A stretch of 59,771 nt of DNA from an uncultured archaeon (GTDB lineage Archaea > EX4484-52 > LFW-46): the NCBI GenBank assembly GCA_902384675.1, contig CABMCT010000029.1, positions 1-59,771 on the forward strand, written 5' to 3'. A program made the translations under genes and the position numbers. Under the pieces are notes generated by a model that made no database searches, had not been told where the DNA came from, and saw nothing but the letters and a program-made list of their open reading frames with translations. The stretch's first letter is position 1, and each line of letters begins with the position of its first letter. Positions 2,221 through 56,521 of this stretch are shown piece by piece.

Positions 2221-2670
2221 TTACAGCAACTTGTCGATTTCCTTTTTGAAAGACTCGACATCGGTAAATCTTTTGTAGACCGATGCAAATCTGATATATG
2301 CGACTTCGTCAAGCGATTTTAACTTGCGCATCACAACCTGACCTATTTCCGAGCTTTTTACCTCGTGGTCGTCTTCATGCTTCTGCCTTATCTCGGATTC
2401 TATGTCGTTGGCAAGCTTATCTATTGCCTCGTGAGTTATCGGCCTTTTCTCGCATGCGTGCATTATGCCTCGCTTTACCTTTTCCCTGTCAAACTCTTCC
2501 CGGTTCCCGTCCTTTTTAATGACAAGAAGCGACGGCAGTTCTATGCGCTCGTAAGTCGTAAAGCGCCTGCTGCATTTCTCGCACTCTCTTCGCCTTCGGT
2601 TTATGTTGTCTTCGGATTCGCGCGAGTCAAGGACTTTTGTTTCTGTATGCGAGCAAAAAGGGCATTTCAC
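2221..2670 (-). CDS. nrdR: NrdR transcriptional repressor (Zn ribbon + ATP cone)
   Basis: MKCPFC...DSR...RRRRECEKCSRRFTTYE, then ATP cone VIKKDGNREEFDREK and C-terminal LDEVAYIRFASVY. GTG start; directly upstream of nrdD. Confidence 0.97.
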   Translation of the reverse strand: MKCPFCSHTETKVLDSRESEDNINRRRRECEKCSRRFTTYERIELPSLLVIKKDGNREEFDREKVKRGIMHACEKRPITHEAIDKLANDIESEIRQKHEDDHEVKSSEIGQVVMRKLKSLDEVAYIRFASVYKRFTDVESFKKEIDKLL

Positions 2671-2840
2671 GATTTACCACCTTGTTGTTTTTGTAAATCG
2701 TGAAAGCCTTGAACTTCGCGCTCAATGGCTGATAAGGCGAAGCGAATGGATTTCCAACCATCAGCATTATGCAGTGGGTTGGAAAGCTTGGAATACTCAT
2801 CACATGATTTTTCGCCATTCAATGAATGCATTGGGCGAAA
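2665..2840 (+). repeat. Modular palindromic repeat array, copy in the nrdR leader
   Basis: Contains a 13-bp perfect IR (2665-2677/2693-2705), an AAAGCC...GAATGGATTT junction, TTTCCAACCA...TGGGTTGGAAA, AAAGCTTG...CATGATTTTT and TTTTCGCCA...TGGGCGAAA. It is collinear with the copy at 16455-16592. Confidence 0.88.
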
Positions 2841-2867
2841 CTTCTTTGAATAAAGGGGGCATTTCAT
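2667..2867 (-). other. Possible 66-aa upstream ORF (MKCPLYSKKF...) whose stop overlaps the nrdR GTG
   Basis: AAGGTGA ribosome site 5 nt before ATG 2867. The first codons duplicate the nrdR start, and TGA overlaps the nrdR start as GTGA. The body is repeat-derived, so coding function is unproven. Confidence 0.35.
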
Positions 2868-2903
2868 ATTAATCACCTTACACTACCAAGCGAGTGTAAA
2901 CAG

Positions 2904-2919
2904 TCACTAACACTTGGTT
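2904..2919. promoter_or_regulatory. Possible third, degenerate NrdR box
   Basis: TCACTAACACTTGGTT keeps C4, A6, T11 and G13 and lies exactly 31 bp from the 2935 box. Confidence 0.45.
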
Positions 2920-2934
2920 TTTAAAAATCCAAAT

Positions 2935-2981
2935 ATACTATATGTAGTGGTTATCCCCCTTCGCAACACTATTAGTAGTGT
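2935..2981. promoter_or_regulatory. Tandem NrdR boxes (2935-2950 and 2966-2981)
   Basis: ATACTATATGTAGTGG and ACACTATTAGTAGTGT fit the bacterial consensus acaCwAtATaTwGtgt. Start-to-start spacing is 31 bp, the known NrdR spacing. Confidence 0.88.
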
Positions 2982-3014: not shown

Positions 3015-3058
3015 ACTTGAGCATATATTTTTCGACAGTTATTTCGAATTATATTTCT

Positions 3059-3211
3059 TTAATAAATTACTTCACTGTAATCGAATAATTGCTGTTGGCC
3101 GTAAACTCTTGACGCCGGCTTTATGTCTGAAACAGGATATTTCCTGCTCAGTTCCACTATTTTCTGCTTCATCCTGTGGCGCATGATGAAGCGCTCTGCT
3201 CTGTGGTTCAT
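3059..3211 (-). CDS. Putative 50-aa small protein (MNHRAERFIMRHRMKQKIVELSRKYPVSDIKPASRVYGQQQLFDYSEVIY)
   Basis: Found by manual translation, below the track cutoff. It fills an otherwise empty gap, and TTTATAAG begins 30 nt before the ATG (leaderless geometry). Confidence 0.5.
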   Translation of the reverse strand: MNHRAERFIMRHRMKQKIVELSRKYPVSDIKPASRVYGQQQLFDYSEVIY

Positions 3212-3280
3212 ACTAGAACTAAGTTTTGGGCGCCTTATAAATATGCCGCCTACATGTTGCCGATAGAATTTCAGGTGTGT

Positions 3281-3661
3281 TTATCCGAAGAGGTCTTTCT
3301 TTGTCCAGAGATACCAGACAATAACCCCGGATATAATTATGCCAAGAATGCTTAGTGAAGCAAGGCTTGAGAGCAATCCGATGCCTTCCAATATAAGCGT
3401 TACTGTCCATGCCCATTTTTTCATATTCCACAAGCCATAGTTTATTACAAACTCGACAATGCCCAGAACGAGAATAAAAATACCTGCAAATGCTCCAAGC
3501 CCGCCGAAGAGTACACCAAGCATTCCGGCATAGCTCATCATGCTACCGAGCCCAACCATTGCAATTCCGAGAAGCACAAGCAATCCTGCGCCGATAAATC
3601 CCAGAATGCTGAGTATTGTCACTCCCAAAGGCCTTTCCACGGTTTTATTGCTCTTAGCCAT
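3281..3661 (-). CDS. Small multi-pass membrane protein, unknown function
   Basis: 126 aa with about four Gly-rich hydrophobic segments and an RPLGVTIL N-terminus. Confidence 0.75.
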   Translation of the reverse strand: MAKSNKTVERPLGVTILSILGFIGAGLLVLLGIAMVGLGSMMSYAGMLGVLFGGLGAFAGIFILVLGIVEFVINYGLWNMKKWAWTVTLILEGIGLLSSLASLSILGIIISGVIVWYLWTKKDLFG

Positions 3662-3714
3662 ATCGTCACTATATCTATTATATCAAGTATTAGTATATAA
3701 AGCGATTTTTCGGC

Positions 3715-4230
3715 TTAAATGACCTTTTTTCCTCTTTCCTGCGATATAACGGTTAGTTTTGCCCCGCCGAATTTTTTTGTAAGCTCTTTTCCCTCGAAGA
3801 ATTCATGCAAAAAAACAGCAAGCGCAGCCACTTCAGAATGGGGTTGGCCGGTTACGGCAATGTTATAATCTGCAAGCTGATAGACTTCCCCGGGAACTTT
3901 TTCCCCGCCGACGATTATTAGCACGTCTTTTCCTTTTGATTTCTCTTTTATCTCGGAAATCTTGTCCTGTACCGGCATGCCGTACATCGTAAGATGAATT
4001 TTTATCCCTTTGAATTTCTCGATTATTTTTCTGGATTTTTCCTCGTATCTTATTTTGAATTTTCCACCCCATCTTTTTGCAACATCAGACACGGATTCAA
4101 GGACATTCTCGTCACGCTCCCCGGACAGTATTACTTCGTCTGCTCCAAGAGCACGCGCCGTAAGGCAGACATGGGTCGTAAGGCGCGCATCACGTACGCG
4201 GCGATGGGAAAGTCGGAGGATGGTGAGCAT
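3715..4230 (-). CDS. trm56: tRNA (cytidine-56 2'-O)-methyltransferase, SPOUT family
   Basis: [40 protein letters not shown] and [13 protein letters not shown] are archaeal aTrm56 motifs. Confidence 0.95.
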
Positions 4231-4333
4231 AGAATTTATTTAAAAAATGAGTTTAAAAAGAGCACACAAAACACATTATTTCTTTCAGTGATGATTTGTA
4301 ACCTATTTATGTATCGCACCCGAATATTATTGC

Positions 4334-9878: not shown

Positions 9879-10658
9879 TTAATTATCGTTGGGCATTAAG
9901 CTATCGCACAACTCATTTAAATCCCTGAACACGAAATCCGGCTTCTCGGTACGAAGAACGTGCGCAAATCCCATTCCTGTCAATACTGCTGCTGATTTGC
10001 ACCCTGCATTTTTTGCTGCGAGTATGTCATGCGCCGAATCGCCGATGTAAAGCATTTCTTTGGGTTTCACACCAAGAGTTTTTGCAACCAAAAGCAGGCC
10101 TTCAGGATCCGGCTTTTTGTTTTTCAGTTCTTCCTCCCCGATAATGCACTTGAAATATTTCCTTATCCCTATATCTTGGAGCCATTTTTCAGTAAGAGAA
10201 AGCCTGCTGTCTGTAAGAACTGCCAGCGTGTATTTTTTGGGAAGCGCTTCAATTACTTCTTTGACATAAGGCATTATTTTCGTGTATTTGCGCGATTCCG
10301 GATTTTCATAGAACCAGTAAACATACCGCTGCGCCATTCTCTCGATTAGCGCATCATCATCCGGCTTCGTATATGCTTTGATAATATTATGGACATACTC
10401 TTCTGCATCCTTTCTTTTTATAATATCCGCAAGGTTCTCGCCTGAGCGCGAAATGCAGAGAAGCGCCCGTAAAATGGCACGCCTCGGGTTCAGGTCTCCG
10501 AATCCGCGCAAGTGCCAGACACCCAATGTTTTGAAAGAATATTTCAATCCGAACTCTTCAAACACCTTCCTGAATACGAAGTCAAACGTTTCGGAAGTGT
10601 TTCGCAAAACTCCGCCGACATCAAAAACAATTGCTTTAATCATACTTTCTTTTTTCAC
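9879..10658 (-). CDS. HAD-superfamily hydrolase (phosphoglycolate-phosphatase-like)
   Basis: FDVGGVL, KKPDPEG and YIGDSAHDILAAKNAG. Confidence 0.88.
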   Translation of the reverse strand: MKKESMIKAIVFDVGGVLRNTSETFDFVFRKVFEEFGLKYSFKTLGVWHLRGFGDLNPRRAILRALLCISRSGENLADIIKRKDAEEYVHNIIKAYTKPDDDALIERMAQRYVYWFYENPESRKYTKIMPYVKEVIEALPKKYTLAVLTDSRLSLTEKWLQDIGIRKYFKCIIGEEELKNKKPDPEGLLLVAKTLGVKPKEMLYIGDSAHDILAAKNAGCKSAAVLTGMGFAHVLRTEKPDFVFRDLNELCDSLMPNDN

Positions 10659-10667
10659 AAAATCATC

Positions 10668-11702
10668 TTACTTCGCTTCCGCGTTGTTCGAAGCTTTTGA
10701 ACTTTCGCTCAAAACTCCACGCCCCCCGATTTCTGCCTTGAATGCCTCAACTCCGGTTGATTCTATGGCTTTTAGAACCTTGCCGGCATCCTTTTCTTTT
10801 GCCAGTGCAAACATGATGCCGCCCCATCCGGAGCCGGAAAGCTTTGCTCCAAGGGCTCCTGCTTTTCTTGCCTCCTCGATACAGTCGTCAAGCTTCGGGT
10901 GAGAGACGCCCAAAGAGGATAAAAGTTCCTGGTTTTTGTTCATCAGCTTTCCGAGTTTTGCTTCGTCATTTTTTGCAATGGCGGATTCTGCGGCTTTGCA
11001 AATCTCCTCCATTTCGTCGAAAATGCCGAAAACAAAGTCTTTTTTCCGCGCAATAAGGCTTGGCAAATGGTATTTGACAGAAAGCGAGGTCGGGGATGAA
11101 ATTCTTGTGTTGCCTACAACAATCGAGAATTTATGCGTGCCCAGCTGCTGCCAGTCCAGGGATGTTTTCCCTTCTGCCTCAATCTTCTGTATTCTGTTGA
11201 ACCCGCCAAGCGCGCTTGAAATAATCTCGGCGCCCGACGCCCTTCCGCCGTGCACTTTAACCTGCATGGGATAAATATAATCGAAATATTTCTCCGGAGG
11301 GATTTGCTTTCCTGCAAAAGAGCTTACCGCTTTAAAGGCTGCACAAAGCAATGCGGTTGAGCTGCTCATTCCTGAATTTACAGGGACCTTTGAAGATATT
11401 TTCAGCTCAAGACCTTTTTTTATTCCGAGTTTTGGTACAAGCATTTCAAGAAAATCAAATGTTGTAGAAAGTTCAGAGGCTTCAAATCGTTTGTTTACAA
11501 GGGTGTTGCCTTTAATTTCCGAGCTTCCTTTGCCGAAGCTGTCCGAGTCCACAAGAACTTTTGTGTCATTTCTCTCTTTTACCTCTACATAAGTCCTTCT
11601 GTCGACCGCTGCGCAGATTGCAGGCTTCCCATAAGCTGCGGCGTATTCCCCGAAGAAAAAAATGTTTCCCGGCGCAGATGCCTCAAAAACTCTCTGTTCC
11701 AT
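10668..11702 (-). CDS. mvk: Mevalonate kinase-like GHMP kinase with divergent catalytic motifs
   Basis: SAPGNIFFFGEYAAAYGKPAI, PVNSGMSSSTA, SGAE and AKLSGSGWGG; first gene of the MVA cluster. Confidence 0.72.
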   Translation of the reverse strand: MEQRVFEASAPGNIFFFGEYAAAYGKPAICAAVDRRTYVEVKERNDTKVLVDSDSFGKGSSEIKGNTLVNKRFEASELSTTFDFLEMLVPKLGIKKGLELKISSKVPVNSGMSSSTALLCAAFKAVSSFAGKQIPPEKYFDYIYPMQVKVHGGRASGAEIISSALGGFNRIQKIEAEGKTSLDWQQLGTHKFSIVVGNTRISSPTSLSVKYHLPSLIARKKDFVFGIFDEMEEICKAAESAIAKNDEAKLGKLMNKNQELLSSLGVSHPKLDDCIEEARKAGALGAKLSGSGWGGIMFALAKEKDAGKVLKAIESTGVEAFKAEIGGRGVLSESSKASNNAEAK

Positions 11703-16375: not shown

Positions 16376-16402
16376 TTTTTATCATCTCTTTAAGCATTAG
16401 AT

Positions 16403-16650
16403 AAAAATCCTGCCACTTACGTGGCAAGCTTTTGGGGATTTTTCAGCTTCGCTGAAAAAGCCTAGAGCGCAACGCCTTATGGTTAACAAGGCGAAGCGAA
16501 CGGATTTTGAACCATTGACTTAATGCATTGGGTTCAAAAGCTTGGAACTTAGTTCCATGATTTTTCGCCATCAATCTATGCTGTGGGCGAAAACAGCTTG
16601 ACACAAAGTGTCATGATTTTGAACCATATAAATTATGCACTGGGTTAAAT
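16403..16650 (+). repeat. Modular palindromic repeat array (longest collinear copy)
   Basis: Alternating hairpins: three CCA...ATGC..TGGG stems, two (A)AGCTTG-stem-CATGATTTT modules, one AAAAGCC...GAACGGATTTT module and one inverted module at 16403-16434. Confidence 0.9.
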
Positions 16651-16698
16651 GATTCCACCACTTAATATACTATTTAAATGTTATTTAAAGCTTAAATA

Positions 16699-16929: not shown

Positions 16930-16961
16930 CTTATATACTTTATCTAAAAAATAGTATCATG

Positions 16962-17022
16962 AAAATCATCTCGTTCGCTGCCCGCGAACTCCAAGCTTTT
17001 TATTTTTGCGATGCACGAGGTG
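16962..17022 (-). repeat. Repeat-family module in the alg14-like leader
   Basis: AAAATCATCTCGTTCGC-tgccc-GCGAACTCCAAGCTTTT, then ATGCA and GAGGTG. Near-identical to 30692-30750. Confidence 0.8.
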
Positions 17023-17029: not shown

Positions 17030-17470
17030 ATGAAAATTTGTCTCGCATGCTCTGCAGGAGGACACTTGGCCGAACTGCTGCAGGTAAAAGCCGCATTCAG
17101 GGGGCACGATACTTTTTTTGTTACCTTTCTTCGCGAGGATTCAAAGGAGCTCAAAAATGCATATTTTATCGAGGACCCGAGAAGAAATCCTTTGCGCCTG
17201 ATTAAGACTATTTTTTCGTCGCTTTCTATACTGAAAAAAGAAAACCCTGACGTGATACTCACAACAGGGGCAGGTGTTGCGGTTCCTATCTGCTGGCTGG
17301 CAAAAATCATGGGCAAAAAAGTGGCTTATCTTGAATCTTTTTGCAGGGTGAAGGAGCCTTCACTTTCGGGAAAGCTGGTTTATCCGATAGCGGATTTGTT
17401 TTTAGTGCAGTGGGAAGGCATGCTTTCAAAGTATGGCAAAAAGGCGAAATATTGGGGGGCTGTATTTTAG
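17030..17470 (+). CDS. Alg14/PssD-like glycosyltransferase acceptor subunit
   Basis: MKICLACSAGGHLAEL, PDVILTTGAGVAVP and YLESFCR...LSGKL. GAGGTG site upstream of ATG 17030. Confidence 0.9.
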   Translation: MKICLACSAGGHLAELLQVKAAFRGHDTFFVTFLREDSKELKNAYFIEDPRRNPLRLIKTIFSSLSILKKENPDVILTTGAGVAVPICWLAKIMGKKVAYLESFCRVKEPSLSGKLVYPIADLFLVQWEGMLSKYGKKAKYWGAVF

Positions 17471-17520
17471 CGCGAAGCGCTAAAAGCCGAGAGTGAACGC
17501 AAGTGAACGAACGGATTTTG
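17465..17520 (+). repeat. Repeat-family copy between the alg14- and alg13-like genes
   Basis: TTTTAGCGC-GAA-GCGCTAAAA perfect stem, followed by an AAAAGCC...GAACGGATTTT junction. Confidence 0.8.
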
Positions 17521-17540
17521 ATTTTAAGGAGGAGTTACCA

Positions 17541-24332: not shown

Positions 24333-24482
24333 TTTCCAATCGCCGAAGGCTATTGGAAAGCTTGAAACTCATTTTGAATATTTTCGCTCCACAATATGTA
24401 AAGCGAAAATTTCGAAAGCTTGAAAATCTGCATGATTGCATAATGATTTTCATGACATGTTTTGCAAGCGAGTTTCATGATT
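24333..24482 (+). repeat. Nested repeat-family copy
   Basis: Outer AAAGCTTGAAACTC (24357-24370)...GAGTTTCATGATT (24470-24482) encloses inner AAAGCTTGAAAATC (24415-24428)...GATTTTCATGA (24445-24455). Confidence 0.88.
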
Positions 24483-26135
24483 CTTTAAAATCGATATGCG
24501 CCCGTTGTTGTAAACTTCTGTCATATTTTTTGAAAGGAAATCCTCGCGTATCGCAAGGTTGTACTGTATCAGTGCCGGGTGGTCGCCAAGGGCAGATACC
24601 GTGAAAATATAATAGCTCATGTTGAAATACCCCGGCTGCTCAATCGGCTGGAGCACTTCCGTCGGATACGTTTCAAAGCCGAACCAGCCTGTGCGGTGCA
24701 GGCCGCCGTTATATTCCGAAGCAAGTTCGTACTTATATTCCTGCTTCAGCTTCTGGTTTTTTATTCCGTCGACGAGGTCATCAAAATTAACAGCGTACGA
24801 CATTCTTTCAGTATGATAGAGGGATTGTTTGGTAAAAAGAAGCGGCGTGTAAAAATAAAATACCTTGTCATTTTGCATTGTGTTATTTCGTATCCATTCG
24901 ATGCCACCCCATGTTCCTTTGTCCATTACTCCCTGCGGCGAAAGCTTTCCAATATGCATGCTGAAGAAAAAGGCAACAAGTAACGCGCTTATCAGGAATA
25001 TATGAGTTGTACTTATGTTGCGTTTTGCCTTCTTTACCAGGAAAAAAGCTCCTAATGCAAAAAGCGGAGAAAGATACAACGGCCACATTGCGCGCAACTG
25101 CCATGCACGCTCGGCGAACCCTATATAATTCGTATAGCCGACAAATAAAAAGAATATTGCAACCAGCATAGGAAACATGCTTTTTCCTTTTAGCTCAAGA
25201 AAATCTGACAGGGAGCTGTCGCTTTTGTTGCGCGAAAGAATGCTTATTGCAAAAAGAGCCATGCCAAGAACAAGAAACGCTATTGTGTAATCGAAATACC
25301 AGATAGATACACCCTTTCCCGGTGCCATGCTGAAATCAGTTGAAACCGTGAATGCCTGCATGTTTTTGTACCTGAAGTAAAGCCTCATTATGTTCAGGTA
25401 ATATGCAGAAAGAACAAACATTATTGCATACGCTCCGGCGATTTTTGACAGGAGCACCTTCTCCACTTTTTTGTCCTGGAAGAACTTCAGTATAAGGTAA
25501 ACTGCGATGAAACCTGTCACAAAAAACATCTGCACTGTATGGGCAAGAGCGCTTCCTGCCAGGAGCAACCCCAAAAGTATTGTCGGATGTTTTATCGTAT
25601 TGATATTACCCAGCACAAATAATGCTCCAAGCGCAAAGAATGTCCCGCTGACAAACCACCATATCCCGAAAGGATAAATAAGATCGAACGAGTAGTTAAA
25701 AACCCCGAGCATAAAAGGCAGGCTTAGTAGCGCAAGATTCTGGCTTTGCCTGCGTATTATCAGGTACATCGCAAGCATTGCAAGAACCGAAAATATAGCA
25801 GTAATGAAATATATTGAATCATATACCGCTATTCCTGTGATAGATGAGAACATTGCGGCGTATATGGGCAACAGCGGCGGCCCGATGTTTATTGATTTTT
25901 CAAACCCGTCGGAAATATATGTCGGAGAGAAAACAGGGGTGCCGGACGCCTTTGTTTCGTCCGTAAGAATAATGCTCTGGAATGCATCGTTTGCAACGTA
26001 AAATTGCGGATAAGTATGCGAAATTCTTCCGTCAAAAGGCTGGACGAGCCGCACGTAAAGAACCATGCAGAAAAAAATCGCAAGGAAAATTTTTTCGAGT
26101 AATTCGCGATTATCCTGATTTAATTCCGGTGCCAT
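24450..26135 (-). CDS. Polytopic GT-C/STT3-like membrane protein lacking WWDYG (paralog B)
   Basis: Shares ANDAF, LALLSLPFMLG, W..IRNNT and QYN.AIR..L with 21754-23415. Confidence 0.65.
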   Translation of the reverse strand: MAPELNQDNRELLEKIFLAIFFCMVLYVRLVQPFDGRISHTYPQFYVANDAFQSIILTDETKASGTPVFSPTYISDGFEKSINIGPPLLPIYAAMFSSITGIAVYDSIYFITAIFSVLAMLAMYLIIRRQSQNLALLSLPFMLGVFNYSFDLIYPFGIWWFVSGTFFALGALFVLGNINTIKHPTILLGLLLAGSALAHTVQMFFVTGFIAVYLILKFFQDKKVEKVLLSKIAGAYAIMFVLSAYYLNIMRLYFRYKNMQAFTVSTDFSMAPGKGVSIWYFDYTIAFLVLGMALFAISILSRNKSDSSLSDFLELKGKSMFPMLVAIFFLFVGYTNYIGFAERAWQLRAMWPLYLSPLFALGAFFLVKKAKRNISTTHIFLISALLVAFFFSMHIGKLSPQGVMDKGTWGGIEWIRNNTMQNDKVFYFYTPLLFTKQSLYHTERMSYAVNFDDLVDGIKNQKLKQEYKYELASEYNGGLHRTGWFGFETYPTEVLQPIEQPGYFNMSYYIFTVSALGDHPALIQYNLAIREDFLSKNMTEVYNNGRISILKNHETRLQNMS

Positions 26136-26157: not shown

Positions 26158-26258
26158 AAGTCATCTCGTTTGCTACTGCAAACTTGAAGCTTTTGAGGAT
26201 TTACGAGCGAAGCTTCGAAAGCTTGAAACTCAACAGGTATGCACAAGAGTTTTATGAC
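26158..26258 (+). repeat. Repeat-family copy
   Basis: TCATCTCGTTTGC...GCAAACTTGAAGCTTTTGAGGATTT, GCGAAGC and TTCGAAAGCTTGAAACTC...GAGTTTTATGAC. Confidence 0.85.
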
Positions 26259-28798: not shown

Positions 28799-30658
28799 AT
28801 GTGTGGTATCTGCGGGTTTACTTTCGAGGACAAAACGCTTCTGAAGAACATGTGCAGGCTAATTGCCCACCGCGGGAATGATGCACGCGGGTTCTATTAT
28901 GATAAAAACATAAGCCTGGGGCACCAGAGACTGAGTATAATTGACCTTGAAGGCGGAAAGCAGCCAATATATAACGAGAATAAAGACATTTGCGTTGTTT
29001 ACAATGGCGAAATATACAATTTTGCCGAATTAAAGGAAGAGCTCCAAAATCTGGGGCACAAATTTTATACAAATACGGATACGGAAGTTATAGTTCACGC
29101 ATATGAGGAATGGGGCACTGATTGCGTCAGGAAGTTTAACGGCATGTATGCATTTGCGCTCTGGAATTCAAAGGATAAAGAGCTTTTCCTTGCGCGCGAC
29201 AGGCTCGGGATAAAGCCGCTTTATTACACAATCATAAACGGGAGCCTGGCATTTGCCTCCGAATCAAAAGCTTTGATGATCCTGCCGGGGTTTGACAAGA
29301 CCCTGAACAAAAATGCAATCGATATGTACCTGACATTCAGGGCAGTTCTTGGCCAGGAGTGTATGTTTTCTTCTGTCAAAAAGCTTCTTCCGGGGCATAC
29401 GCTTTTGTGGAAAAGCAAAAAAACCAGGATAGAAAAATACTGGGGTGTGGAGGAAAAATTCCTGGAGCCGACAGAAAAAGAAATTATCCAAAACCTCAGG
29501 AGCCTGCTTGAAGACTCCGTGAAACGGCATATGATTGCCGACGTTCCTGTCGGTGCGTTTTTATCGGGAGGCCTTGATTCTAGTGCGGTCGTTGCCCTGA
29601 TGAGCAAATACGGGACCGTGAAAACGTTTTCCGTCGGTTTTGGAGGCGAATTTGACGAGCTCAAATACGCAAAAACAGTGTCCGAGAAATTCCGGACAGA
29701 CCACCATGAAATATACGTAAAAGAGGATGCTCTTTCGCTTTTGCCAAAAATCGTATGGCATTTTGACGAGCCTGTCGCTGACCCTGCGGCAGTGCCGACA
29801 TATGTTTTGTCAAGGGAAACAAGGAAAAAATGCAAAGTGGTGCTCACAGGCGAAGGAGGGGATGAGATTTTCGCGGGGTATGAGCAGTACAAGTTCATGA
29901 CACTAAAGGAGCGGTTTAAGGGCGCCTCAAAAGCCGCAGGTTCGGTGATTGGTGCGGTTCCACCATCCCTGCTTTCATATGCATTTCCTTATGCGAGCCG
30001 GCTTGGAATGAAGGGAATAAGGAGAGCCAGGGGATTTTTAAGAGAGGATGGGTTCGAGAAAGCGTATATGGAAATAACTTCTGTTTTTAACGAGGATGAT
30101 TTGAATGCAATTTGCGGCAGCAGCGGGTATTCGCTTGAATTTCTTAAATCGGCAATGTCGCGATACAAGCACCCCCTGAACAAGATGCAGCTGTTTGAGC
30201 TTGAAAACATACTCCCTGATAACCTGCTTATGAAGGTTGACCGAATGACCATGGCGCACTCGCTTGAAGCACGCGTCCCGCTTCTTGACCACCGGATAGC
30301 AGAATATTCCTTTTCACTGCATCCATCCATAAGGTTCAGGAACTCGGAGCCAAAGTATCTGTTCAAGAAGTCTGTAAAAGATATCCTTCCAAAAGAAATA
30401 CTAAACAGGCGAAAGCAGCGATTTTTTGTCCCGATAGATGAGTGGCTCCAGAAACGCGAAGCAAAGAATTATATTGAAAATTTCTACTTATCCGGAGATA
30501 CGCACGCGGGCTTGAAAGTGAACCCGAAATACATACATAATATTTTCCAGAATTACGACAATTCAAAGTTGTTCTATGCCCGCCAGCTATGGAGCCTGCT
30601 GAATATGGCGATGTGGTATGAGACATTTGTAGATAAGGATGCGGGAAATGCTTTATAA
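28799..30658 (+). CDS. asnB: Asparagine-synthetase-like glutamine amidotransferase, probably acting on a sugar
   Basis: MCGICG, HRG.D, NGEIYN, LSGGLDSS, LTGEGGDE and DRMTMAHSLEARVP. Confidence 0.92.
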   Translation: MCGICGFTFEDKTLLKNMCRLIAHRGNDARGFYYDKNISLGHQRLSIIDLEGGKQPIYNENKDICVVYNGEIYNFAELKEELQNLGHKFYTNTDTEVIVHAYEEWGTDCVRKFNGMYAFALWNSKDKELFLARDRLGIKPLYYTIINGSLAFASESKALMILPGFDKTLNKNAIDMYLTFRAVLGQECMFSSVKKLLPGHTLLWKSKKTRIEKYWGVEEKFLEPTEKEIIQNLRSLLEDSVKRHMIADVPVGAFLSGGLDSSAVVALMSKYGTVKTFSVGFGGEFDELKYAKTVSEKFRTDHHEIYVKEDALSLLPKIVWHFDEPVADPAAVPTYVLSRETRKKCKVVLTGEGGDEIFAGYEQYKFMTLKERFKGASKAAGSVIGAVPPSLLSYAFPYASRLGMKGIRRARGFLREDGFEKAYMEITSVFNEDDLNAICGSSGYSLEFLKSAMSRYKHPLNKMQLFELENILPDNLLMKVDRMTMAHSLEARVPLLDHRIAEYSFSLHPSIRFRNSEPKYLFKKSVKDILPKEILNRRKQRFFVPIDEWLQKREAKNYIENFYLSGDTHAGLKVNPKYIHNIFQNYDNSKLFYARQLWSLLNMAMWYETFVDKDAGNAL

Positions 30659-30683: not shown

Positions 30684-30750
30684 AAAATGAAAGTCATCTC
30701 GTTCGCGAGCAGCGAACTCGAAGCTTTTCATTTTTTAATGCATGAGGTGA
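30684..30750 (-). repeat. Repeat-family module in the radical SAM leader
   Basis: AAAATGAAA-GTCATCTCGTTCGC-gagca-GCGAACTCGAAGCT-TTTCATTTT, then ATGCA and GAGGTG. Confidence 0.8.
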
Positions 30751-32199: not shown

Positions 32200-32487
32200 G
32201 GCATGGGTTCCAACTCATTGCATAATGTTAATCCTTTCGCTTGCGTTCTAGGCTTTTCAGCCCCCAAGCAATTGGCGAATTGTTGAAAATCCTCAAAAGC
32301 TTGCCATTTCGAACCTTGTGTTCGAAAGCTTGAAAATCTCTGAGATTTTCATGACGCAAGTGGCATGATTTTTATCCAAGTAAAATCATGACACCTCCAG
32401 CTTTTCAAGCTGGAAGCCTTCGAGATTTATCGGGATGGCTTCGTGTCAAGCTTTTCAACCCAATAATAATTGTGAATGGTTAAAAAT
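32200..32487. repeat. Largest repeat array, with modules in both orientations
   Basis: Plus strand: AAAAGCTTGCCA (32295)...TGGCATGATTTTT (32373) enclosing AAAGCTTGAAAATC...GATTTTCATGA. Minus strand: AAAATCATGACAC (32382)...GTGTCAAGCTTTT (32455), plus reversed CCA...TGGG and AAAAGCCTAGA modules. Confidence 0.9.
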
Positions 32488-32502
32488 GGAGAATGATAAA
32501 AA

Positions 32503-33474
32503 ATGATTTCAGTTATAATTCCGGCATATAATTCTGAAAAAACAATAAGGGGCTGCCTCCAAGCCCTTCAGTCTCAAAGCATCAAGGATATCGAAGTCAT
32601 TGTTGTGGACGACGGCTCAAGTGACGATACAGCGTCGATTGTCAAATCGTTCAAAAATGTAAAATTTTTCAAAAGACAGCACAAAGGCCCTGCATCGGAG
32701 CGGAATTTTGGCGCTAAAATGGCCAAGGGAGAAATACTTCTTTTTACGGATTCCGATTGCGAGCCGGACAAAAACTGGGTTTCTGAAATGGTTGCCCCGT
32801 TTAAGAGTGATAAGTCGGTTGTCGGCGTTTCAGGGACATACAGGACGCGCCAGAAAGAGCTGATTGCAAGATTCGCGCAGTACGAAATCGAGGAGCGGCA
32901 CGAGAAAATGGCAAAGGCGGGTTCCATTGATTTCATCGGGACGTTTTCGGCAGGATACAGGAAAGAAATATTTGACAAATTCGGCGGGTTTGACGAATCA
33001 TTTTCAACATCTGCAGGCGAGGACCCTGAGCTATCATTCAGAATCGCAGAAGCAGGTTATAAAATGGTCTTTGCGCCGAAAGCGTTTGTTTATCATACGC
33101 ATCCGAATACACTCCGGAAATATTTGAAGCAGAAATACAGGAATGCTTTTTGGAGGGTTGCTGTCTATGCAAAGAGAAAAAAGACTTTCAGGAAAGGGCA
33201 TTCTTATACACCGACAAGCGCGTTAATAGAAGCAATATGTGTCGCTGGATTTTTAATATCTTTGTTTTTGTATTTGATCTACCCGACCGCAGGATATAAA
33301 GCCATAACGCGAGGATTTTTGTTATTCACTTTCCTTCCATCGGCATTGCTTACATATCATATAGCTGAAAAAGATATCGCTGTTGGGATGGCTTCACCAT
33401 TCATAATAATTCTTCGCGCGTTTGTAACTGCGTTTGGAATTACGCGCGGCTTTCTTAAGAGGTACGTCGTATGA
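32503..33474 (+). CDS. GT2 glycosyltransferase with C-terminal TMs
   Basis: SVIIPAYN, VDDGSSD, FTDSDC and AGEDPEL. Confidence 0.9.
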   Translation: MISVIIPAYNSEKTIRGCLQALQSQSIKDIEVIVVDDGSSDDTASIVKSFKNVKFFKRQHKGPASERNFGAKMAKGEILLFTDSDCEPDKNWVSEMVAPFKSDKSVVGVSGTYRTRQKELIARFAQYEIEERHEKMAKAGSIDFIGTFSAGYRKEIFDKFGGFDESFSTSAGEDPELSFRIAEAGYKMVFAPKAFVYHTHPNTLRKYLKQKYRNAFWRVAVYAKRKKTFRKGHSYTPTSALIEAICVAGFLISLFLYLIYPTAGYKAITRGFLLFTFLPSALLTYHIAEKDIAVGMASPFIIILRAFVTAFGITRGFLKRYVV

Positions 33475-39580: not shown

Positions 39581-39614
39581 AGCTTAAATAATTAACTAAG
39601 GCAATATTTCATGA
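39581..39614 (+). repeat. Degenerate repeat-family module
   Basis: AGCTT-AAATA...TATTT-CATGA. Confidence 0.55.
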
Positions 39615-39673
39615 ATGCTAAAGAACATACGGAATGTTCTTTAACCAGAAAACTCAAAAGACTTAGAGGGCTT

Positions 39674-41581
39674 ATGTGCGGCATAACAGGATTCGTTGGA
39701 TTTGAAGACAAGTCGCTTATTCATAAAATGACAGACATGATAGCCCACAGGGGACCTGACGACAGCGGCTATTTTATCGGCAAAAACATTTGTCTCGGGC
39801 ACAGGCGGCTGAGCATAATCGATGTAAGTGCTGGAAAGCAGCCCATGTACAACGAAGACGATTCCATATGCATTGTTTTTAACGGGGAGATTTACAATTA
39901 TTCCGCACTAAGTGAGGAGCTCAAAAGAAAAGGGCATAAGTTTCGCACAAATTCCGACACAGAAACAATTATCCACGCGTATGAGGAATACGGGGATAAT
40001 TGTGTTAAGCATCTGCGGGGAATGTTTGCATTTGCAATATGGGACAACAGCACCAGAAAGAAACTTTTTCTTGCCCGCGATAGGCTCGGAATAAAGCCGC
40101 TCTATTATGCGCTTATAAACGGCTCAATCGTATTTGCTTCAGAGATAAAAGCAATACTGTTGCATCCTGACATAAAGCGAAAGGTCGACAATGAAGCGCT
40201 TTACAGCTATCTGACATTCGGTTATGTGCCTGCGCCAAGGACTATGTTTTCGGGAATCTGCAAGTTACCCCCGGCAAGCACGCTTTCTTTCAAGGATGGC
40301 AGATACGAGATAAAACAATACTGGGATGTAACATTTAAAGAAACAGAGGGAAGTGAGGAGCGACAGCTCGGCAATTCAGGCTCGAGATGGAGCGACGATG
40401 AGGAGCACTATAAGGCAGAATTGCTTCGCATTCTTAAAGAATCAGTACGTTCGCATTTAATGAGCGAGGTGCCGCTTGGCGCATTTCTTTCAGGCGGGCT
40501 TGATTCAAGCACTGTCGTTGCTCTTATGAGCTCTGCGGCAGAGGAGCCTATCAAAACCATCTCAGCAGGCTTTGAAAGCGGAGGCTATTATGACGAGCTC
40601 AAATACGCACGGATAGTTGCAGAGCATTTCAATACAGACCATCACGAGGTTGTGCTTAAGGCGAATGACCTCAAAATTCTTCCAAAAATAGTATGGCACT
40701 TTGACGAGCCTGTACCGGACCCGTCTTCTGTTCCGGAATATCTGATATCGCAGAAAGCCAAAAAGTATGTGACAGTAGCCCTTGTCGGGGAGGGGTCTGA
40801 TGAACTGTTCATGGGATACAGGCAGTACAAGATTATGTCTATGGCATACGCTCCGGTAATCAGAAATATGCTTATGCATGCTCCGGTAGGCAAGGTTGCC
40901 TCGTTATTCGGCAGGGCACCTGTTCCCAGAATTGCAAAGCGATATATGGAAGTGGCAGCAGGCATTTCAAAATCCATAAACTCTCCCAAAGATTGCTACA
41001 TGGGGCTCGTTAGCTCTTTTAGCCCGGAGGAGAGAAGCAGCATACTGGCTAATCCCAAAAGCGGATTTAGCGAATCGATACTTGGAGGATACTTTGCAGG
41101 AAATGGCACAATATTTGATAAGATGAGTAAATTCGAGCTGTCTGTTCCTCTTGCAGATATGCTTCTTATGAATGTCGATAAAATGACAATGGCAAATGCT
41201 ATAGAGGCGCGCGTGCCGTTCCTTGACCATAAGCTCGTGGAATTTTCTGCCAACATCCCGTGCTCATTAAAGTTATATAGGTTTAACGAAAAATATCTGC
41301 TTAAGAAGGCAATGTCAGGAATCCTGCCGAAAGAAATACTGAAGCGAAAGAAGCATCCTTTTGCAGTTCCGGTAAGAAACTGGCTTGAGGGCGAGTTAAA
41401 AGACCGGATGCTGGACGTATTATCCAGGGAGAGAATAGAAAAGCAGGGGTATTTCAAATACCCGTATATTAAAAAGCTGATTGACGGGAAGAAGTACAAT
41501 CAATTATGGCCGCTGACATTTTTTGAGATGTGGCACGAAATTTTTATTGAAGATTCTAAATTTAACAGAGGAACGATATGA
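39674..41581 (+). CDS. asnB: Asparagine-synthetase-like amidotransferase, copy 2
   Basis: Start reassigned to MCGITG (Cys must be N-terminal). HRGPD, NGEIYN, LSGGLDSS and GEGSDE. Confidence 0.92.
   Translation: MCGITGFVGFEDKSLIHKMTDMIAHRGPDDSGYFIGKNICLGHRRLSIIDVSAGKQPMYNEDDSICIVFNGEIYNYSALSEELKRKGHKFRTNSDTETIIHAYEEYGDNCVKHLRGMFAFAIWDNSTRKKLFLARDRLGIKPLYYALINGSIVFASEIKAILLHPDIKRKVDNEALYSYLTFGYVPAPRTMFSGICKLPPASTLSFKDGRYEIKQYWDVTFKETEGSEERQLGNSGSRWSDDEEHYKAELLRILKESVRSHLMSEVPLGAFLSGGLDSSTVVALMSSAAEEPIKTISAGFESGGYYDELKYARIVAEHFNTDHHEVVLKANDLKILPKIVWHFDEPVPDPSSVPEYLISQKAKKYVTVALVGEGSDELFMGYRQYKIMSMAYAPVIRNMLMHAPVGKVASLFGRAPVPRIAKRYMEVAAGISKSINSPKDCYMGLVSSFSPEERSSILANPKSGFSESILGGYFAGNGTIFDKMSKFELSVPLADMLLMNVDKMTMANAIEARVPFLDHKLVEFSANIPCSLKLYRFNEKYLLKKAMSGILPKEILKRKKHPFAVPVRNWLEGELKDRMLDVLSRERIEKQGYFKYPYIKKLIDGKKYNQLWPLTFFEMWHEIFIEDSKFNRGTI
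40354..40406 (+). repeat. 45-bp in-frame insertion flanked by an 8-bp direct repeat (TGAGGAGC)
   Basis: The repeat lies at 40354-40361 and 40399-40406. Removing 15 aa makes the segment the same length as in asnB copy 1. Confidence 0.75.
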
Positions 41582-51921: not shown

Positions 51922-53001
51922 ATGAAAATATGTATAATTCTGGGCACCCGGCCGGAAATTATCAAAATGGCACCAATTATCAGGGAATGTGAAAAAAAAC
52001 ATGCGGATTATTTCGTTCTTCACACGGGCCAGCATTACTCAATAAACATGGACAAGATATTTTTTGACGAACTGAAACTTCCGCAGCCGGGATATAATCT
52101 TGATGTTGGTTCTGGGACCCATGCAAAACAGACTGCGGATATGCTCGTCGGCATAGAAAATGTTTTGTTAAAGGAAAAGCCGGATATTGTTCTTGTAGAA
52201 GGAGATACAAACACGGTTCTTGCAGGATCTTTGGCAGCATCTAAACTTCATATTCTTGTGGGGCACGTGGAAGCAGGGCTTAGGTCTTATGACAGGAATA
52301 TGCCCGAGGAGATAAACAGGATTTTATCGGACCACGTTTCCGATTATCTTTTTGCACCTACGGAAAAAGCAAAAAGCAACCTTCTCTCCGAGGGAATACC
52401 CGCAAATAAAATTTTCGTGACAGGCAATACAATTGTTGATTCTGTATTGCAGCATATAAAACTGGTAAAGGAAAAATCAGATGTGCTGAAGAATATGAAC
52501 TTAAAGAAAGATGGCTATATTCTCATGACGGCACACAGGCAGGAAAATGTGGATGTCAAGAACAGGTTAAAAGGCATCTTTGACGGGCTGAAGATAATTT
52601 GTAAAGAATATCGTTTGCCGGTAATATTTCCAATACATCCCAGGACCCGGAAGCGTATGGAAGCGTTCGGCTTAAAGGAAACAGAAGGCATAGTGTTTAC
52701 AGAGCCTGTGGGATTCCTGGATTTCCTGGAGCTTGAATCCAATGCCCGGCTCGTGCTGACTGATTCCGGTGGAGTGCAGGAAGAAACATGCATTTTAAAT
52801 GTCCCTTGTGTTACTTTGCGGGACAATACCGAGCGCCCTGAGACAATAGATGTTGGCTCAAATATGCTTGCAGGTACCACCCCTGAAAAAATAAGGGACT
52901 CTGTAAGGCATATGATTAGCAAAAAAACCAACTGGAAAAACCCTTTTGGGGATGGGAAAGCCGCACTCAGGATATTATCCATTCTGGATAAAATGTCATG
53001 A
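51922..53001 (+). CDS. wecB: Non-hydrolysing UDP-GlcNAc 2-epimerase (WecB/WbpI family)
   Basis: GTRPEIIK, HTGQH, GDTNT, HVEAGLRS, TDSGGVQEE and NPFGDG. Confidence 0.95.
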   Translation: MKICIILGTRPEIIKMAPIIRECEKKHADYFVLHTGQHYSINMDKIFFDELKLPQPGYNLDVGSGTHAKQTADMLVGIENVLLKEKPDIVLVEGDTNTVLAGSLAASKLHILVGHVEAGLRSYDRNMPEEINRILSDHVSDYLFAPTEKAKSNLLSEGIPANKIFVTGNTIVDSVLQHIKLVKEKSDVLKNMNLKKDGYILMTAHRQENVDVKNRLKGIFDGLKIICKEYRLPVIFPIHPRTRKRMEAFGLKETEGIVFTEPVGFLDFLELESNARLVLTDSGGVQEETCILNVPCVTLRDNTERPETIDVGSNMLAGTTPEKIRDSVRHMISKKTNWKNPFGDGKAALRILSILDKMS

Positions 53002-53050
53002 ACTGAGAGCGCCGGCGAACAGATTTCAGCGCCTTCGGCGATTGAAAGTA
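52997..53050 (+). repeat. Degenerate repeat-family copy overlapping the wecB stop
   Basis: TCATGA, then GAGAGCG...GCGAACAGATTTC (compare 17482-17519) and the reverse complement of CAATCGCCGAAGGC (compare 24337-24350). Confidence 0.7.
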
Positions 53051-53091
53051 AGTATATTAATATTTGCGCCAAAATAGGCGAGTGGTATTGA

Positions 53092-53841: not shown

Positions 53842-53861
53842 TTGCCGGAGGCAGAGGTTAA

Positions 53862-54908
53862 ATGGACGTCGACTTGATAATCCCGCCAAGAAAGGGCTTG
53901 GCTAAAGGCGAGTACGAATCTTTATTGATTAGCGAAGAAACCAACGTTATACAAGCGGAGCCCAAGCAGGTGTCGGGCCTGATAAGTAAACTGGATTATA
54001 TCAGGTTCGTCAGGTCCAAACTTGGCAGCGGCGTTAAGCACATTACAGACGATGGCCTGGGGTATCTTCTTTACTTCATTCCTACTGAAAAATCAATAGT
54101 TACATGTCATGGAATAAACATCCCGTATCTGGATTATTTCAGCGCCCGGACAAAGTTAATCTATGGTTTTTGTTTGAAATGCATGAGCAGGGCAACACGG
54201 GTTCACGCTGTTTCAAATTGGGCAAAGCGGGATATACTTACGTATACCAAAGTGCCTGCCGACAGAATAGATGTTGTCCGGTTCGGGTTGAACTCCAAGA
54301 TTTTCAGGCCGCGCAACGGAAGCTATATCAGGGATACATTTGGCATTCCGGAAAAAAATAAAATCGTGCTTTATGTCGGCTCCGAGCAGCCCCGAAAGAA
54401 TGTTCCAACACTCATAGAGGCATTCTATAGGCTTAAGAAAAAAATGCCAAATGTTACGCTTGTCAAGGTAGGTACTGATGGCTGGCCTGGAATGCGGGAA
54501 CGCGTGTTAAAGCAAATAGAATCCTTAGGTTTGCAGAAGGATGTCATATTCGCCGGATGGTACCCGAACAACGAACTTCCTAAGCTGTATAACTCGGCGG
54601 ATGTATTTGTATTTCCTTCGTATTCTGAAGGGTTCGGAGTTCCTCCGCTTGAAGCCCTAGCATGCGGATTGCCTGTGATAACAACAGATAAAACATCGCT
54701 TCCTGAGATAGTTGGCGATGCAGCAATAAAATTATCAGACCCATTTGATTCCAAACTTTTGGCTGATGCTATGGAAAAAGTCCTGACAAATAATGGCCTA
54801 AAACAGGACATGATTAAAAAAGGGCTAAAGCAGGCAAAAGAATTTACATGGGAGAAATATACTAAAGGAGTGTATAAGATTTACGAAGAAGTTTGGAATT
54901 CTAAATAA
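53862..54908 (+). CDS. GT4 glycosyltransferase
   Basis: YVGSEQPRKN and EGFGVPPLEALACG. Confidence 0.92.
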   Translation: MDVDLIIPPRKGLAKGEYESLLISEETNVIQAEPKQVSGLISKLDYIRFVRSKLGSGVKHITDDGLGYLLYFIPTEKSIVTCHGINIPYLDYFSARTKLIYGFCLKCMSRATRVHAVSNWAKRDILTYTKVPADRIDVVRFGLNSKIFRPRNGSYIRDTFGIPEKNKIVLYVGSEQPRKNVPTLIEAFYRLKKKMPNVTLVKVGTDGWPGMRERVLKQIESLGLQKDVIFAGWYPNNELPKLYNSADVFVFPSYSEGFGVPPLEALACGLPVITTDKTSLPEIVGDAAIKLSDPFDSKLLADAMEKVLTNNGLKQDMIKKGLKQAKEFTWEKYTKGVYKIYEEVWNSK

Positions 54909-54918
54909 CCCAGTTCAA

Positions 54919-56388
54919 TCAGCGGATAACTGAGATGATCTGTCGTATTTCTTCCTTGGTAATGCCTTTGAGGAGTAGCATCAGCGAGAAATACATCAAA
55001 ATGGCAATGCCCCCTGAAATTATGAAATGCACAAGTGTTATTTCCCTGAATACTTGCGGAAGGGCAAAATCAAGAAGGACATAAACAATAAACGATGCCA
55101 GCATCGGCTTCCAGACGATATCCAGCGGAAGCCTTATTTTTTCTTTAAAGAACAGAAGGTAGGAAAAAATAAGCATCTCCAGAATTTTGATAAAAAGCAT
55201 GCCGTATGCGGCACCCACTATCCCATAAGTAGGTATTAGCACCAGGTCAAGTATGAAAAGAATTATGGTCAGAGGGATAAACACCTTCGTCTGTATTTCG
55301 GGTTTATTAATGCTGATAAAATAATTCAGAAAAAATGCTGCAAATAGCATCGGAGAAACAGTAAGCGATAAGACCTTTAGCGCCCCGGCTGCCGGAAGAT
55401 AGCTTGTACCATAAAGAAATATTATGAATGCTCCGGAAAATGCCGAAAGAAGGAACGAGAAAGGAAATGATAAGAGCCCGGTATATTTTATTGAATCGGA
55501 AAGCATTTTTGTAAGCTTCTCTTTTGAAGCATTGCTGTTGGAATAATACACAAACATGACCTGATACGACATCGGTACAAGATAAATTATTGCGAATACC
55601 CAGCTATAGGCCAGTTGATAAAAGCCGACATTCTCTACAGGAAGCATTTTTGAAATCAACAGCTTGTCTGTCATGCCGTATATCGTTCCTATAATAACGC
55701 CCGTAGTGCTCCATACACCGAACGCACGAAGCTTGCTGTAATCGAGGGCTTTTGTGCCTGATTCGAATATTTTCGGGTAGCTTTTCAGGGTAGAGTAGCC
55801 CATGATTAAAGCTAACAATATGTAAGAAGCTGCATTGCCTATTAGCGCCCCGTAAGCCTTGAATCCGAGAAGAAGGAATACCAGAATCATGGCAGCTTTC
55901 AACAATTGCTCGACAATCCTGAAAACACTCTGGTTTTTAAACGACTTCATCATCAGGAACATAGAAAACAAGTACTCTGAAATCGTTGTGGCAAAGAGAA
56001 TTATGCTTGATAGGACAATGACCTCTGTTACCTGTGATTTGCCGAAAAATAACGCTATTTTGCCTGGGAAAAGAGCAAGCGCGCCACAGACCAGCAATAG
56101 CAGAATCAATTTATATTTGAACGTTAGACTGATAAGACTTTTTAGCAAGGGACGGTCCTTTTGGTACCGCTCCTCAGAGCCGAATTTAAACAGGATGTTA
56201 TTTATTCCAAAATCAGTAAACAGTGCGGCTGCACCTATAATGACCATCGCAAAAGAATAAAGCCCGAATTCGTACGGCTGCAGGAGCTTTGCAAGATATA
56301 TGTTCAAAAAAAATGCAACTGCGGCAGAGGCCACCTTACCTATTGAAAATATCATATTTGCGCGACCGATTTCTTTTTTCAGGCTCAT
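54919..56388 (-). CDS. MOP/Wzx-family flippase
   Basis: About 13-14 TMs, LAKLLQPYEFGLYS and DKLLI...VGFYQLA. Start set at 56388 because the track ATG at 56475 lies within a repeat. Confidence 0.88.
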   Translation of the reverse strand: MSLKKEIGRANMIFSIGKVASAAVAFFLNIYLAKLLQPYEFGLYSFAMVIIGAAALFTDFGINNILFKFGSEERYQKDRPLLKSLISLTFKYKLILLLLVCGALALFPGKIALFFGKSQVTEVIVLSSIILFATTISEYLFSMFLMMKSFKNQSVFRIVEQLLKAAMILVFLLLGFKAYGALIGNAASYILLALIMGYSTLKSYPKIFESGTKALDYSKLRAFGVWSTTGVIIGTIYGMTDKLLISKMLPVENVGFYQLAYSWVFAIIYLVPMSYQVMFVYYSNSNASKEKLTKMLSDSIKYTGLLSFPFSFLLSAFSGAFIIFLYGTSYLPAAGALKVLSLTVSPMLFAAFFLNYFISINKPEIQTKVFIPLTIILFILDLVLIPTYGIVGAAYGMLFIKILEMLIFSYLLFFKEKIRLPLDIVWKPMLASFIVYVLLDFALPQVFREITLVHFIISGGIAILMYFSLMLLLKGITKEEIRQIISVIR

Positions 56389-56462
56389 ATGAGTAATAAA
56401 AGACGCATACTTTTTTATAGGTATGGCGGATTGCCTTTCGGGCTGTTTCGGCGTATGGTTTG

Positions 56463-56521
56463 AAAGGCTTGGCATTTCATGCCATGATTTTCAATATGCA
56501 TTGAAGCGATTCACTTTCGCT
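56463..56521 (+). repeat. Repeat-family copy between aglB and the flippase
   Basis: AAAGGCTTGGCA-tttca-TGCCATGATTTT, then CAAT-ATGC-ATTG. Confidence 0.78.

Follow-up and report, generated by a model that had tools for sequence, protein, structure and literature searches.

Short modular hairpin repeats, probably insertional and non-autonomous, in the genome of an uncultured archaeon

In bacteria and organelles, small repeats that form hairpins, of the REP/BIME/RPE kind, are a familiar feature. REP, BIME and REPIN sequences of Proteobacteria are palindromes tagged with GTAG and CGTC (PMC3733652). The Rickettsia palindromic elements (RPEs) measure ~150 bp, have a family-specific conserved peptide and enter protein genes in frame (PMC10969869). 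Hairpin repeats of mitochondria include the double-hairpin elements of Allomyces, the GC clusters of yeast and the RHEs of sponges (PMC2800124, PMC4478555). For archaea, a 2024 review describes few MITEs (miniature transposable elements with inverted repeats; PMC10969869), and we found no literature description of such hairpin repeats for DPANN archaea. Here we analyze a 59,771-nucleotide stretch, the window, from an uncultured archaeon (GCA_902384675.1, contig CABMCT010000029.1, positions 1 to 59,771), in which a first-pass annotation had noted dispersed, self-nesting imperfect palindromes. The dispersed modular hairpin family is real, with at least 11 sites in the window. Our comparison of genomes suggests, with a probability of about 0.75, that its members are very short insertional DNA repeats, non-coding and non-autonomous.

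The window is contig C29 of a 76-contig, 1.20-Mb metagenome-assembled genome (MAG) with a completeness of 89% and a contamination of 2%. We compared it with a sample of its small DPANN phylum, 42 species-level genomes from a single order, all of them MAGs. A nearly complete congeneric sister genome, G001, served for the analysis of insertions; nearly all of it was aligned to the window genome (G000). All insertion and deletion (indel) events described below come from this one pair, at a DNA identity of ~75-83%.

Module anatomy, fold and distribution

On its top strand, the unit runs from (A)TTT through a first hairpin (hpX), the linker AAAAGC(TT or C) and a second hairpin (hpY) to (AT or G)GATTT(T). 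With small hairpins, this working unit of two hairpins and fixed linkers spans ~39-48 nucleotides (nt). Reading through the copies at the coordinates given below, we found that the linkers between hairpins alternate, one being AAAAGCTT (or AAAAGCC) and the other ATGATTTT (or GGATTTT), and we distinguished four recurrent module types. The A-type is AAAGCTT-G[stem-loop]C-ATGATTT, with a loop that is either short (3-4 nt) or long with TATGCA; the B-type is GATTTT-[stem]-CCAT..N8..ATGCA.TGGG-[stem]-AAAAGCTT; the C-type is AAAAGCC-GAGAGCG...CGAAC-GGATTTT; and the D-type is AAAGCTT-CGAG-[stem-loop]-CGAG-ATGATTT. All four have one common junction. The closing helix of the A- and C-types consists of three or four A-T pairs, then a G.A mismatch, then a C-G pair. 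In the AAGCTT-type closing helix of hpY, the C-G pair is followed by T.T and T-A, and the D-type subtype adds tandem G.A pairs (CGAG/CGAG). The G.A mismatch is kept on one strand only. Since the complementary strand would carry C.T and A.A at these places, the conserved fold belongs to one strand. The A-T / G.A / C-G junction proposed in the first-pass annotation is thus real and strand-specific.

The stems vary freely among copies yet remain complementary; the linkers hardly vary, even when two taxonomic families are compared. Of the loose AAGCTT...ATGAY matches, 22% enclosed a Watson-Crick stem of at least 4 bp, compared to 0.6% when the interior was shuffled, and the 82 stem-bearing instances contained 48 distinct stem arms. 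In an alignment of 39 distinct short A-type modules, from which we built a covariance model, each of five inner pairs had changed on both sides in 3-24 sequences, and the closing C-G and T-A pairs never varied. There were 60 cells with both-side changes versus 17.6 in shuffled alignments (0 of 500 shuffles reached 60). The paired fraction was 91% versus 33-45% in slid controls, although this percentage is partly built in, as the sequences had been selected for having a stem; the covariation counts are the informative part. DNA folding gave a slightly better energy for the top strand than for the complement in every tested module (for example, -6.5 versus -4.8 kcal/mol and -27.2 versus -25.7 kcal/mol) except 16499-16545(+), where the better minimum-energy fold leads by only 0.7 kcal/mol. 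The covariance-model match at 16534(+) scored 45.8 bits, compared to 17.2 bits on the opposite strand. Two nested copies, at 24353-24485 and 32290-32376, fold as three-way junctions (z -5.3 and -4.4).

The family occurs on 39 of the 76 contigs of the genome. AAAGCTTG and its reverse complement are present 175 and 155 times, with ~22 expected for each, and AAAGCTTG-N8..38-CATGAYT occurs 74 times versus 0 when read backwards. A covariance-model scan of the genome and related MAGs found 77 copies in the window genome, 58 in G001, 6-46 in every genome of taxonomic family f7, 0-8 in f4 and 0-1 in f2, f3 and f6. Copies are therefore spread through the genome and the phylum. Arrays in f7-type MAGs follow an identical grammar, TTTT-hpX-AAAAGCTT-hpY-ATGATTTT, with different stems and loops, indicating that the linkers are conserved across families and that the hairpins are free to vary. 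Near-identical neighbouring units were also seen in f7.

Elsewhere, exact matches to the repeat were nearly confined to cold-seep and hydrothermal-sediment MAGs with the titles Nanohalarchaeota, Aenigmatarchaeota, Nanoarchaeota or 'archaeon'. Modules of the DPANN type were also present on many contigs of MAGs titled 'Methanosarcinales archaeon' and 'Bathyarchaeota archaeon' (JAIWAJ01..., JAIVYS01...), whose titles or binning are probably wrong. The rumen Bacteroidales MAG RUG10906 (CACWTR01...) had four exact matches to a 23-base gapped pattern, with an estimated ~0.5 by chance in the whole collection; these may represent an unrelated repeat of similar shape.

With respect to genes, 73 of 116 modules lie in spacers and 19 deep inside open reading frames (ORFs). 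Convergent spacers are under-used, with 6 of the 73 modules versus 18% of the spacer length. In tandem gene contexts 16 modules share the direction of the genes and 26 oppose it; for modules inside ORF calls, the numbers are 14 and 29. The latter skew is expected from the sequence, as the with-gene orientation has a TGA in one frame of ATGATT. Neither GC skew nor the majority strand of the local genes, both weak proxies for replication direction, was associated with module orientation (Fisher p = 0.55 and 0.24). Thus, modules occur in both orientations independent of transcription, as first noted, and there is no strict strand bias. Describing the copies as intergenic was incomplete: some copies in the window overlap gene ends, and others elsewhere lie in frame inside genes.

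Filled and empty sites and the copies in the window

Aligning the window genome with G001 yielded 48 clean-flank indels of at least 18 nt, 17 of which carry the family signature. At these sites one species holds a copy where the other, at the orthologous position, has none. At 10655-10712, the window holds a unit and G001 is empty, the gap between the adjoining BLAST matches being 70 nt versus 12 nt. This unit adds 13 C-terminal residues to ORF 10668..11702(-) and parts stop and start codons that overlap in G001. At 16391-16656, seven modules in the window correspond to one module in the opposite orientation within ~45 nt of G001. Conversely, 17001-17025 is empty in the window and carries ~125 nt of modules in G001. 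At 32187-32503, both genomes have arrays, with a different module composition. The site at 30689 is uninformative, as G001 lacks synteny upstream of it.

Family indels within gene calls were multiples of three in 10 of 11 cases (39, 42, 42, 42, 42, 60, 66, 102, 108 and 129 nt; binomial p ~1e-4 at a chance of one third). Note that the eleventh falls in a tRNA gene, so that protein genes account for 10 of 10. In contrast, only two of six intergenic family indels were multiples of three, indicating that the unit length is not intrinsically so. These lengths suggest that selection removes frame-breaking copies and that the surviving in-gene copies are translated.

Oriented on the top strand, the events have (G/C)ATTT(T) preceding the unit and GATTT(T) ending it. 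The exact flanking repeat is 0-7 nt, usually (G)ATTT(T), and the empty site is a single ATTT-like run; the divergence of the genome pair leaves boundaries and duplication length ambiguous. In the window, each of the two nested copies follows CATTT(T) in its host loop. As the unit remakes the target run at its own 3' end, both arrays and nesting are accounted for. No full-length donor for an inserted two-hairpin unit was found in the same genome; what does recur, in up to five identical copies, is the single module of 22-35 nt. This suggests that modules reassort. A snap-back origin of hpX from flanking sequence has anecdotal resemblances in its favor.

Taken together, these observations are consistent with the following scheme. 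A unit would insert directly 3' of a (G/C)ATTT(T) run on the top strand, in either orientation. New units would land beside old ones, building arrays, or in T-rich loops, giving nested copies. Within protein genes only insertions of a multiple of three would survive, and would then be translated. We infer that a sequence-specific trans-acting factor, conserved in the two repeat-rich families, recognises the junction in the form of a folded single strand, and that single modules are the entity copied, reassorting at the linkers. The initial proposal of a non-autonomous family that inserts into itself is supported. The three outcomes that the first-pass annotation had named as refuting it were checked, and none of them refuted it.

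In the window, the covariance model matched 12 places with a clear strand call, plus 10655-10712(-), a two-hairpin unit that the first-pass annotation had overlooked (detected by the model, by alignment to contig C7 of G001 and by its translation). Of the copies listed previously, those at 2667, 16403, 16961, 17465, 24353, 26160, 30689, 32203 and 56461 were upheld. The one at 52997 proved to be only a degenerate relic, and no family signature was visible at 39581, where a degenerate copy had been listed.

The array at 2667..2850(+) comprises a hairpin with a 10-bp stem (2667-2705), a C-type module AAAGCC...GGCGAAGCGAATGGATTT (2703-2755), a B-type hairpin with a CCAT..ATGCA.TGGG loop (2749-2790), a degenerate A-type AAAGCTTG..CATGATTTT (2780-2812) and a second B-type hairpin (2806-2842). 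It was defined by sequence, by repeat families D1, D2 and D16 and by a covariance-model match at 2780-2812(+) of 25.9 bits. The array at 16403..16650 has about seven modules, the first (16403-16435) on the minus strand and the others on the plus strand: C-type at 16457-16510, B-type at 16503-16545, 16560-16597 and 16615-16650, and A-type at 16534-16565 and 16590-16621. A D-type copy at 16961..17002(-), AAAGCTT-(C/G)GAG-stem-loop-stem-CGAG-ATGATTTT (D11; 20.3 bits), is shared by G001 at the orthologous site. Its counterpart at 30689..30730(-), upstream of a radical-SAM gene, is 86% identical (D11). Between an Alg14-like gene and a GT28 gene, 17465..17525(+) consists of the hairpin TTTTAGCGC-GAA-GCGCTAAAA and, after it, a module of the C-type, AAAAGCCGAGAG...CGAACGGATTTT; genome-wide, the 12-mer AAAAGCCGAGAG was counted 37 times and the 12-mer CGAACGGATTTT 39 times.

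Nesting was confirmed at both places where it had been proposed. At 24353..24485(+), the outer module is AAAGCTT-GAAACTC...GAGTTTC-ATGATT (fold -27.2 kcal/mol; covariance-model match at 24412-24451). Within its loop, after CATTTT, lies an entire inner unit, hpX-GAAAGCTT-GAAAATC..GATTTTC-ATGAC. The nested copy also overlaps the 3' end of ORF 24450..26135(-), by ~11 codons. An un-nested counterpart of the outer module is found in the stretch 26160..26258, which has a D-type module at 26160-26193(-) and then, at 26218-26258(+), the long-loop A-type AAAGCTT-GAAACTC-..TATGCA..-GAGTTTT-ATGAC (D8, D18 and covariance model). The long array at 32203..32505, of mixed orientation and identified by sequence and covariance model, contains reversed C- and B-type modules (32231-32290), the second nested copy (32293-32373, +), further reversed modules (32381-32455) and, at its end, a reversed B-type hairpin with a GGAGAATGATAAAAAATG piece. 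In the nested copy, an inner 46-nt unit follows CATTT in the loop of AAAAGCTT-GCCA..TGGC-ATGATTTT. The relic at 52997..53060(+) is a weak, degenerate C-type (..GAGAGCG..CGAACAGATTT), recognized from sequence and giving no match to the A-type model. A single A-type module, AAAGGCTT-GGCAT-ttc-ATGCC-ATGATTTT, lies at 56461..56492(+) (D6; 40.8 bits).

Two start codons appear to be derived from repeats. At 32480-32505, GGAGAATGATAAAAAATG ends in the ATG of a GT2 gene, an arrangement common to the G001 ortholog; and the complement of the 56461 module, AAAATCATG, carries the predicted start, at 56475, of ORF 54919..56475(-). The genes adjoining the arrays are ordinary and encode NrdR, a PRC-barrel protein, an Alg14-like protein, GT28, a radical-SAM enzyme and GT2.

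ARAGORN and Rfam reported nothing in the window. Both miss a tRNA-Ser(GCU)-like gene at 16731-16928(+), whose T-loop is interrupted by ~120 nt (16797-16915). Neither the acceptor arms (GCTGGGA/TCCCAGC) nor the anticodon loop (CTGCTAA) is disrupted, and the gene is conserved in G001, insertion included. A related element of 160 nt, which itself contains nested hairpin modules, interrupts the T-loop of another tRNA, and does so in G001 only (~C8:6947). It matches the window insertion in reverse complement, and the orthologous tRNA at G000:C25:39538 is uninterrupted. The T-loop insert looks like a mobile insertion or an intron that targets T-loops.

Apart from the family, the window contains two paralogous gene segments, 29183-29900 and 40064-40840, ~75% identical in DNA and 10.9 kb apart (D3, D5, D7 and D19). 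They fall in ORFs 28799..30658 and 39611..41581 and represent a gene duplication within a glycan cluster. Elsewhere in the genome, a ~94-nt poly-G stretch at a contig end (G000:C75:37308-37401) is most likely a sequencing or assembly artefact.

Candidate movers and competing explanations

We searched for an enzyme that might move the repeats. The window genome has one Y1_Tnp gene, in a standard IS200/605 element with TnpB (TnpA 129 amino acids, TnpB 403 amino acids). IS200/605 copies lie at G000:C57:2400-4087, which runs into the contig end, and at C74:~3050-4400. The ends of the element are unrelated to the modules, and BLAST with these ends found the second copy only and no derivative copies. 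G001 has three Y1 genes, none flanked by modules. Neither Y1 (7 of 41 genomes) nor RVT_1 (3 of 42 genomes, neither genome of this genus among them) tracked the repeat load, and TnpB (12 of 42 genomes) was unrelated to it. Most of the repeat-rich f7 genomes lack a Y1 match, whereas two repeat-poor f4 genomes have a full-length Y1.

These results bear directly on the proposal, made in the first-pass annotation, that the hairpins are moved as single-stranded DNA by a Y1 HUH enzyme encoded elsewhere, either a RAYT or an IS200/605 TnpA, as in REP/REPIN or PATE systems. Insertion 3' of a short specific run, a similar run at the element end, a hairpin near each end and the one-strand mismatch all fit IS200/605, and Y1 genes are present in both genomes of the pair. 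However, these genes belong to ordinary IS200/605 elements (TnpA with TnpB, or solo TnpA) with their own end hairpins, and Y1 presence does not follow repeat load between f7 and f4. In addition, the modules have no GTAG or CGTC head, and their orientation is unbiased relative to GC skew and the local majority gene strand. We therefore consider a Y1-driven family to be improbable. Nor do the counts justify the weight that was given to the mini-hairpin d(GCGAAGC). The motif is present at the positions given for it, but nine matches in the window versus 9.8 expected amount to chance, and genome-wide only 20 of 181 occurrences are in a family context. An alternative that dispenses with a dedicated transposase is template switching during replication or repair: a nascent strand, or a broken end that terminates in an A/T run or a linker, would move to another linker copy as its template, copy one or two modules and then return, and palindrome correction would keep the stems perfect. 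The recurrence of single modules next to two-hairpin units that lack a full-length donor fits such a process, as do the short, variable junction repeats (0-7 nt, ATTT-like), which microhomology predicts, the near-identical neighbouring units in f7, and the failure of Y1, reverse transcriptase and TnpB to track the family. Yet two families have kept both the linkers and the G.A mismatch on one strand, and palindrome correction should have erased the mismatch; its survival argues for sequence-specific recognition. De novo units at unrelated sites inside genes and the near absence of repeats from f2, f3 and f6 of the same order are likewise not explained by a general repair by-product. Spread by template switching, with no dedicated transposase, seems rather unlikely to us.

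A role as functional RNA, for instance as an untranslated-region hairpin that binds a protein or directs processing, would account for covarying stems with conserved non-Watson-Crick pairs, for the preference for divergent and tandem over convergent spacers (6 of 73 versus 18%) and for copies that provide start codons or Shine-Dalgarno-like pieces. This is hard to reconcile with the use of both orientations relative to neighbouring genes (16 with, 26 against), with in-frame copies in coding regions and with the rapid turnover of arrays between sister species; moreover, there was no Rfam match in the window (Rfam 15, gathering score). We regard an RNA element that is not mobile DNA as highly improbable. 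For the favoured reading, a family of insertional DNA repeats, several points call for caution. Since no enzyme was found, the case for mobility is one of comparative genomics. Gene absences are weak evidence in MAGs that are 57-96% complete; incompleteness weakens the absences but does not explain their pattern. The gene calls are crude, being the longest ORFs, and the ambiguity of the junctions and the partly built-in pairing percentage noted above also weigh against this reading. Finally, stems that are always perfectly paired could be the product of template switching with palindrome correction and not of selection for a fold that is recognised. A more specific version of the insertional reading can tentatively be put forward: the AAAGC...GATTT junction with its one-strand G.A may be the recognition site of a putative sequence- and structure-specific DNA enzyme, neither Y1/HUH nor reverse transcriptase, which would be conserved in two families and would copy single hairpin modules into ATTT sites. 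If true, this would define a new class of hairpin-module mobile element.

Further candidates were rejected. A K-turn or L7Ae site has in its favor G.A and U.U pairs, but on inspection there is no 3-nt bulge beside tandem G.A. A bulge-helix-bulge intron could not be drawn, again by inspection, and in-gene insertions are multiples of three, hence translated rather than spliced. Integron attC sites were dismissed, as the hairpins abut without cassette ORFs and no integrase gene lies beside the arrays whose neighbours were checked. A RAYT or PATE assignment fails on Y1 genes that are of IS200/605 type, with unrelated ends and no flanking modules, and a retro-element on the absence of RVT_1 from this genus.

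Comparison with known hairpin repeats

The family has reshaped a very small genome by lengthening proteins, separating overlapping genes, supplying start codons and filling spacers, and it misleads gene callers and tRNA finders. Conserved linkers, free stems and the lack of a tracking transposase imply either an enzyme not yet known or a repair-based spread, the same question that is posed by RPEs and mitochondrial hairpins. The clean pairs of filled and empty sites are defined substrates that make the mechanism testable.

No match was obtained to an Rfam family, to the ends of either resident IS200/605 copy or to a GTAG/CGTC REP class. Like REP, BIME and REPIN sequences, the modules are short imperfect hairpins in high copy number, mostly between genes, that form mosaics with conserved linkers and have a strand-specific mismatched structure. 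They differ in that no module has a GTAG or CGTC head, the flanks being AAAGC(TT/C) and (AT/G)GATTT, and in that no RAYT is present. Moreover, in REPs the palindrome itself is conserved in each genome, whereas here the stems are hypervariable and the linkers conserved. Copies are also found in frame inside genes, and the host is an archaeon. As in BIMEs, hairpins alternate with AAAAGCTT and ATGATTTT linkers in the arrays 16403-16650 and 32203-32505. By the E. coli definition, successive palindromic units of a BIME alternate in orientation; here, in contrast, most units within an array point one way, for example all plus at 16457-16650.

PATEs of haloarchaea are non-autonomous IS200/IS605 derivatives. 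The present family resembles IS200/IS605 elements and PATEs in its subterminal hairpins, in insertion 3' of a short specific run and in the lack of an obvious fixed-length duplication, and such elements do occur in archaea. Unlike PATEs, it does not have the ends of either resident IS200/605 copy, and it is found in genomes without detectable TnpA. Unlike MITEs, it has no terminal inverted repeats matching the C57 or C74 IS200/605 copies, other IS families not having been searched exhaustively.

The likeness to mitochondrial hairpin repeats is one of analogy only. In both cases, single or double hairpins that encode no enzyme are clustered, confined to lineages and variable in number between close relatives. 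The mitochondrial repeats, in contrast, reside in organelle genomes, are unrelated in sequence and have no described conserved mismatch junction. With RPEs the family has in common palindromic units that lie in frame in genes and are translated, a transposase that is not known, and small, reduced host genomes. The units here are ~40 nt, modular and nesting, compared to ~150 bp for RPEs, and homology to RPEs is unlikely, judging from unit length and host. In conclusion, the family lacks defining features of REP/RAYT systems and PATEs and, as judged from the two IS200/605 copies, of classical MITEs, and it probably belongs with the small non-autonomous repeats of the REP/BIME/RPE kind.

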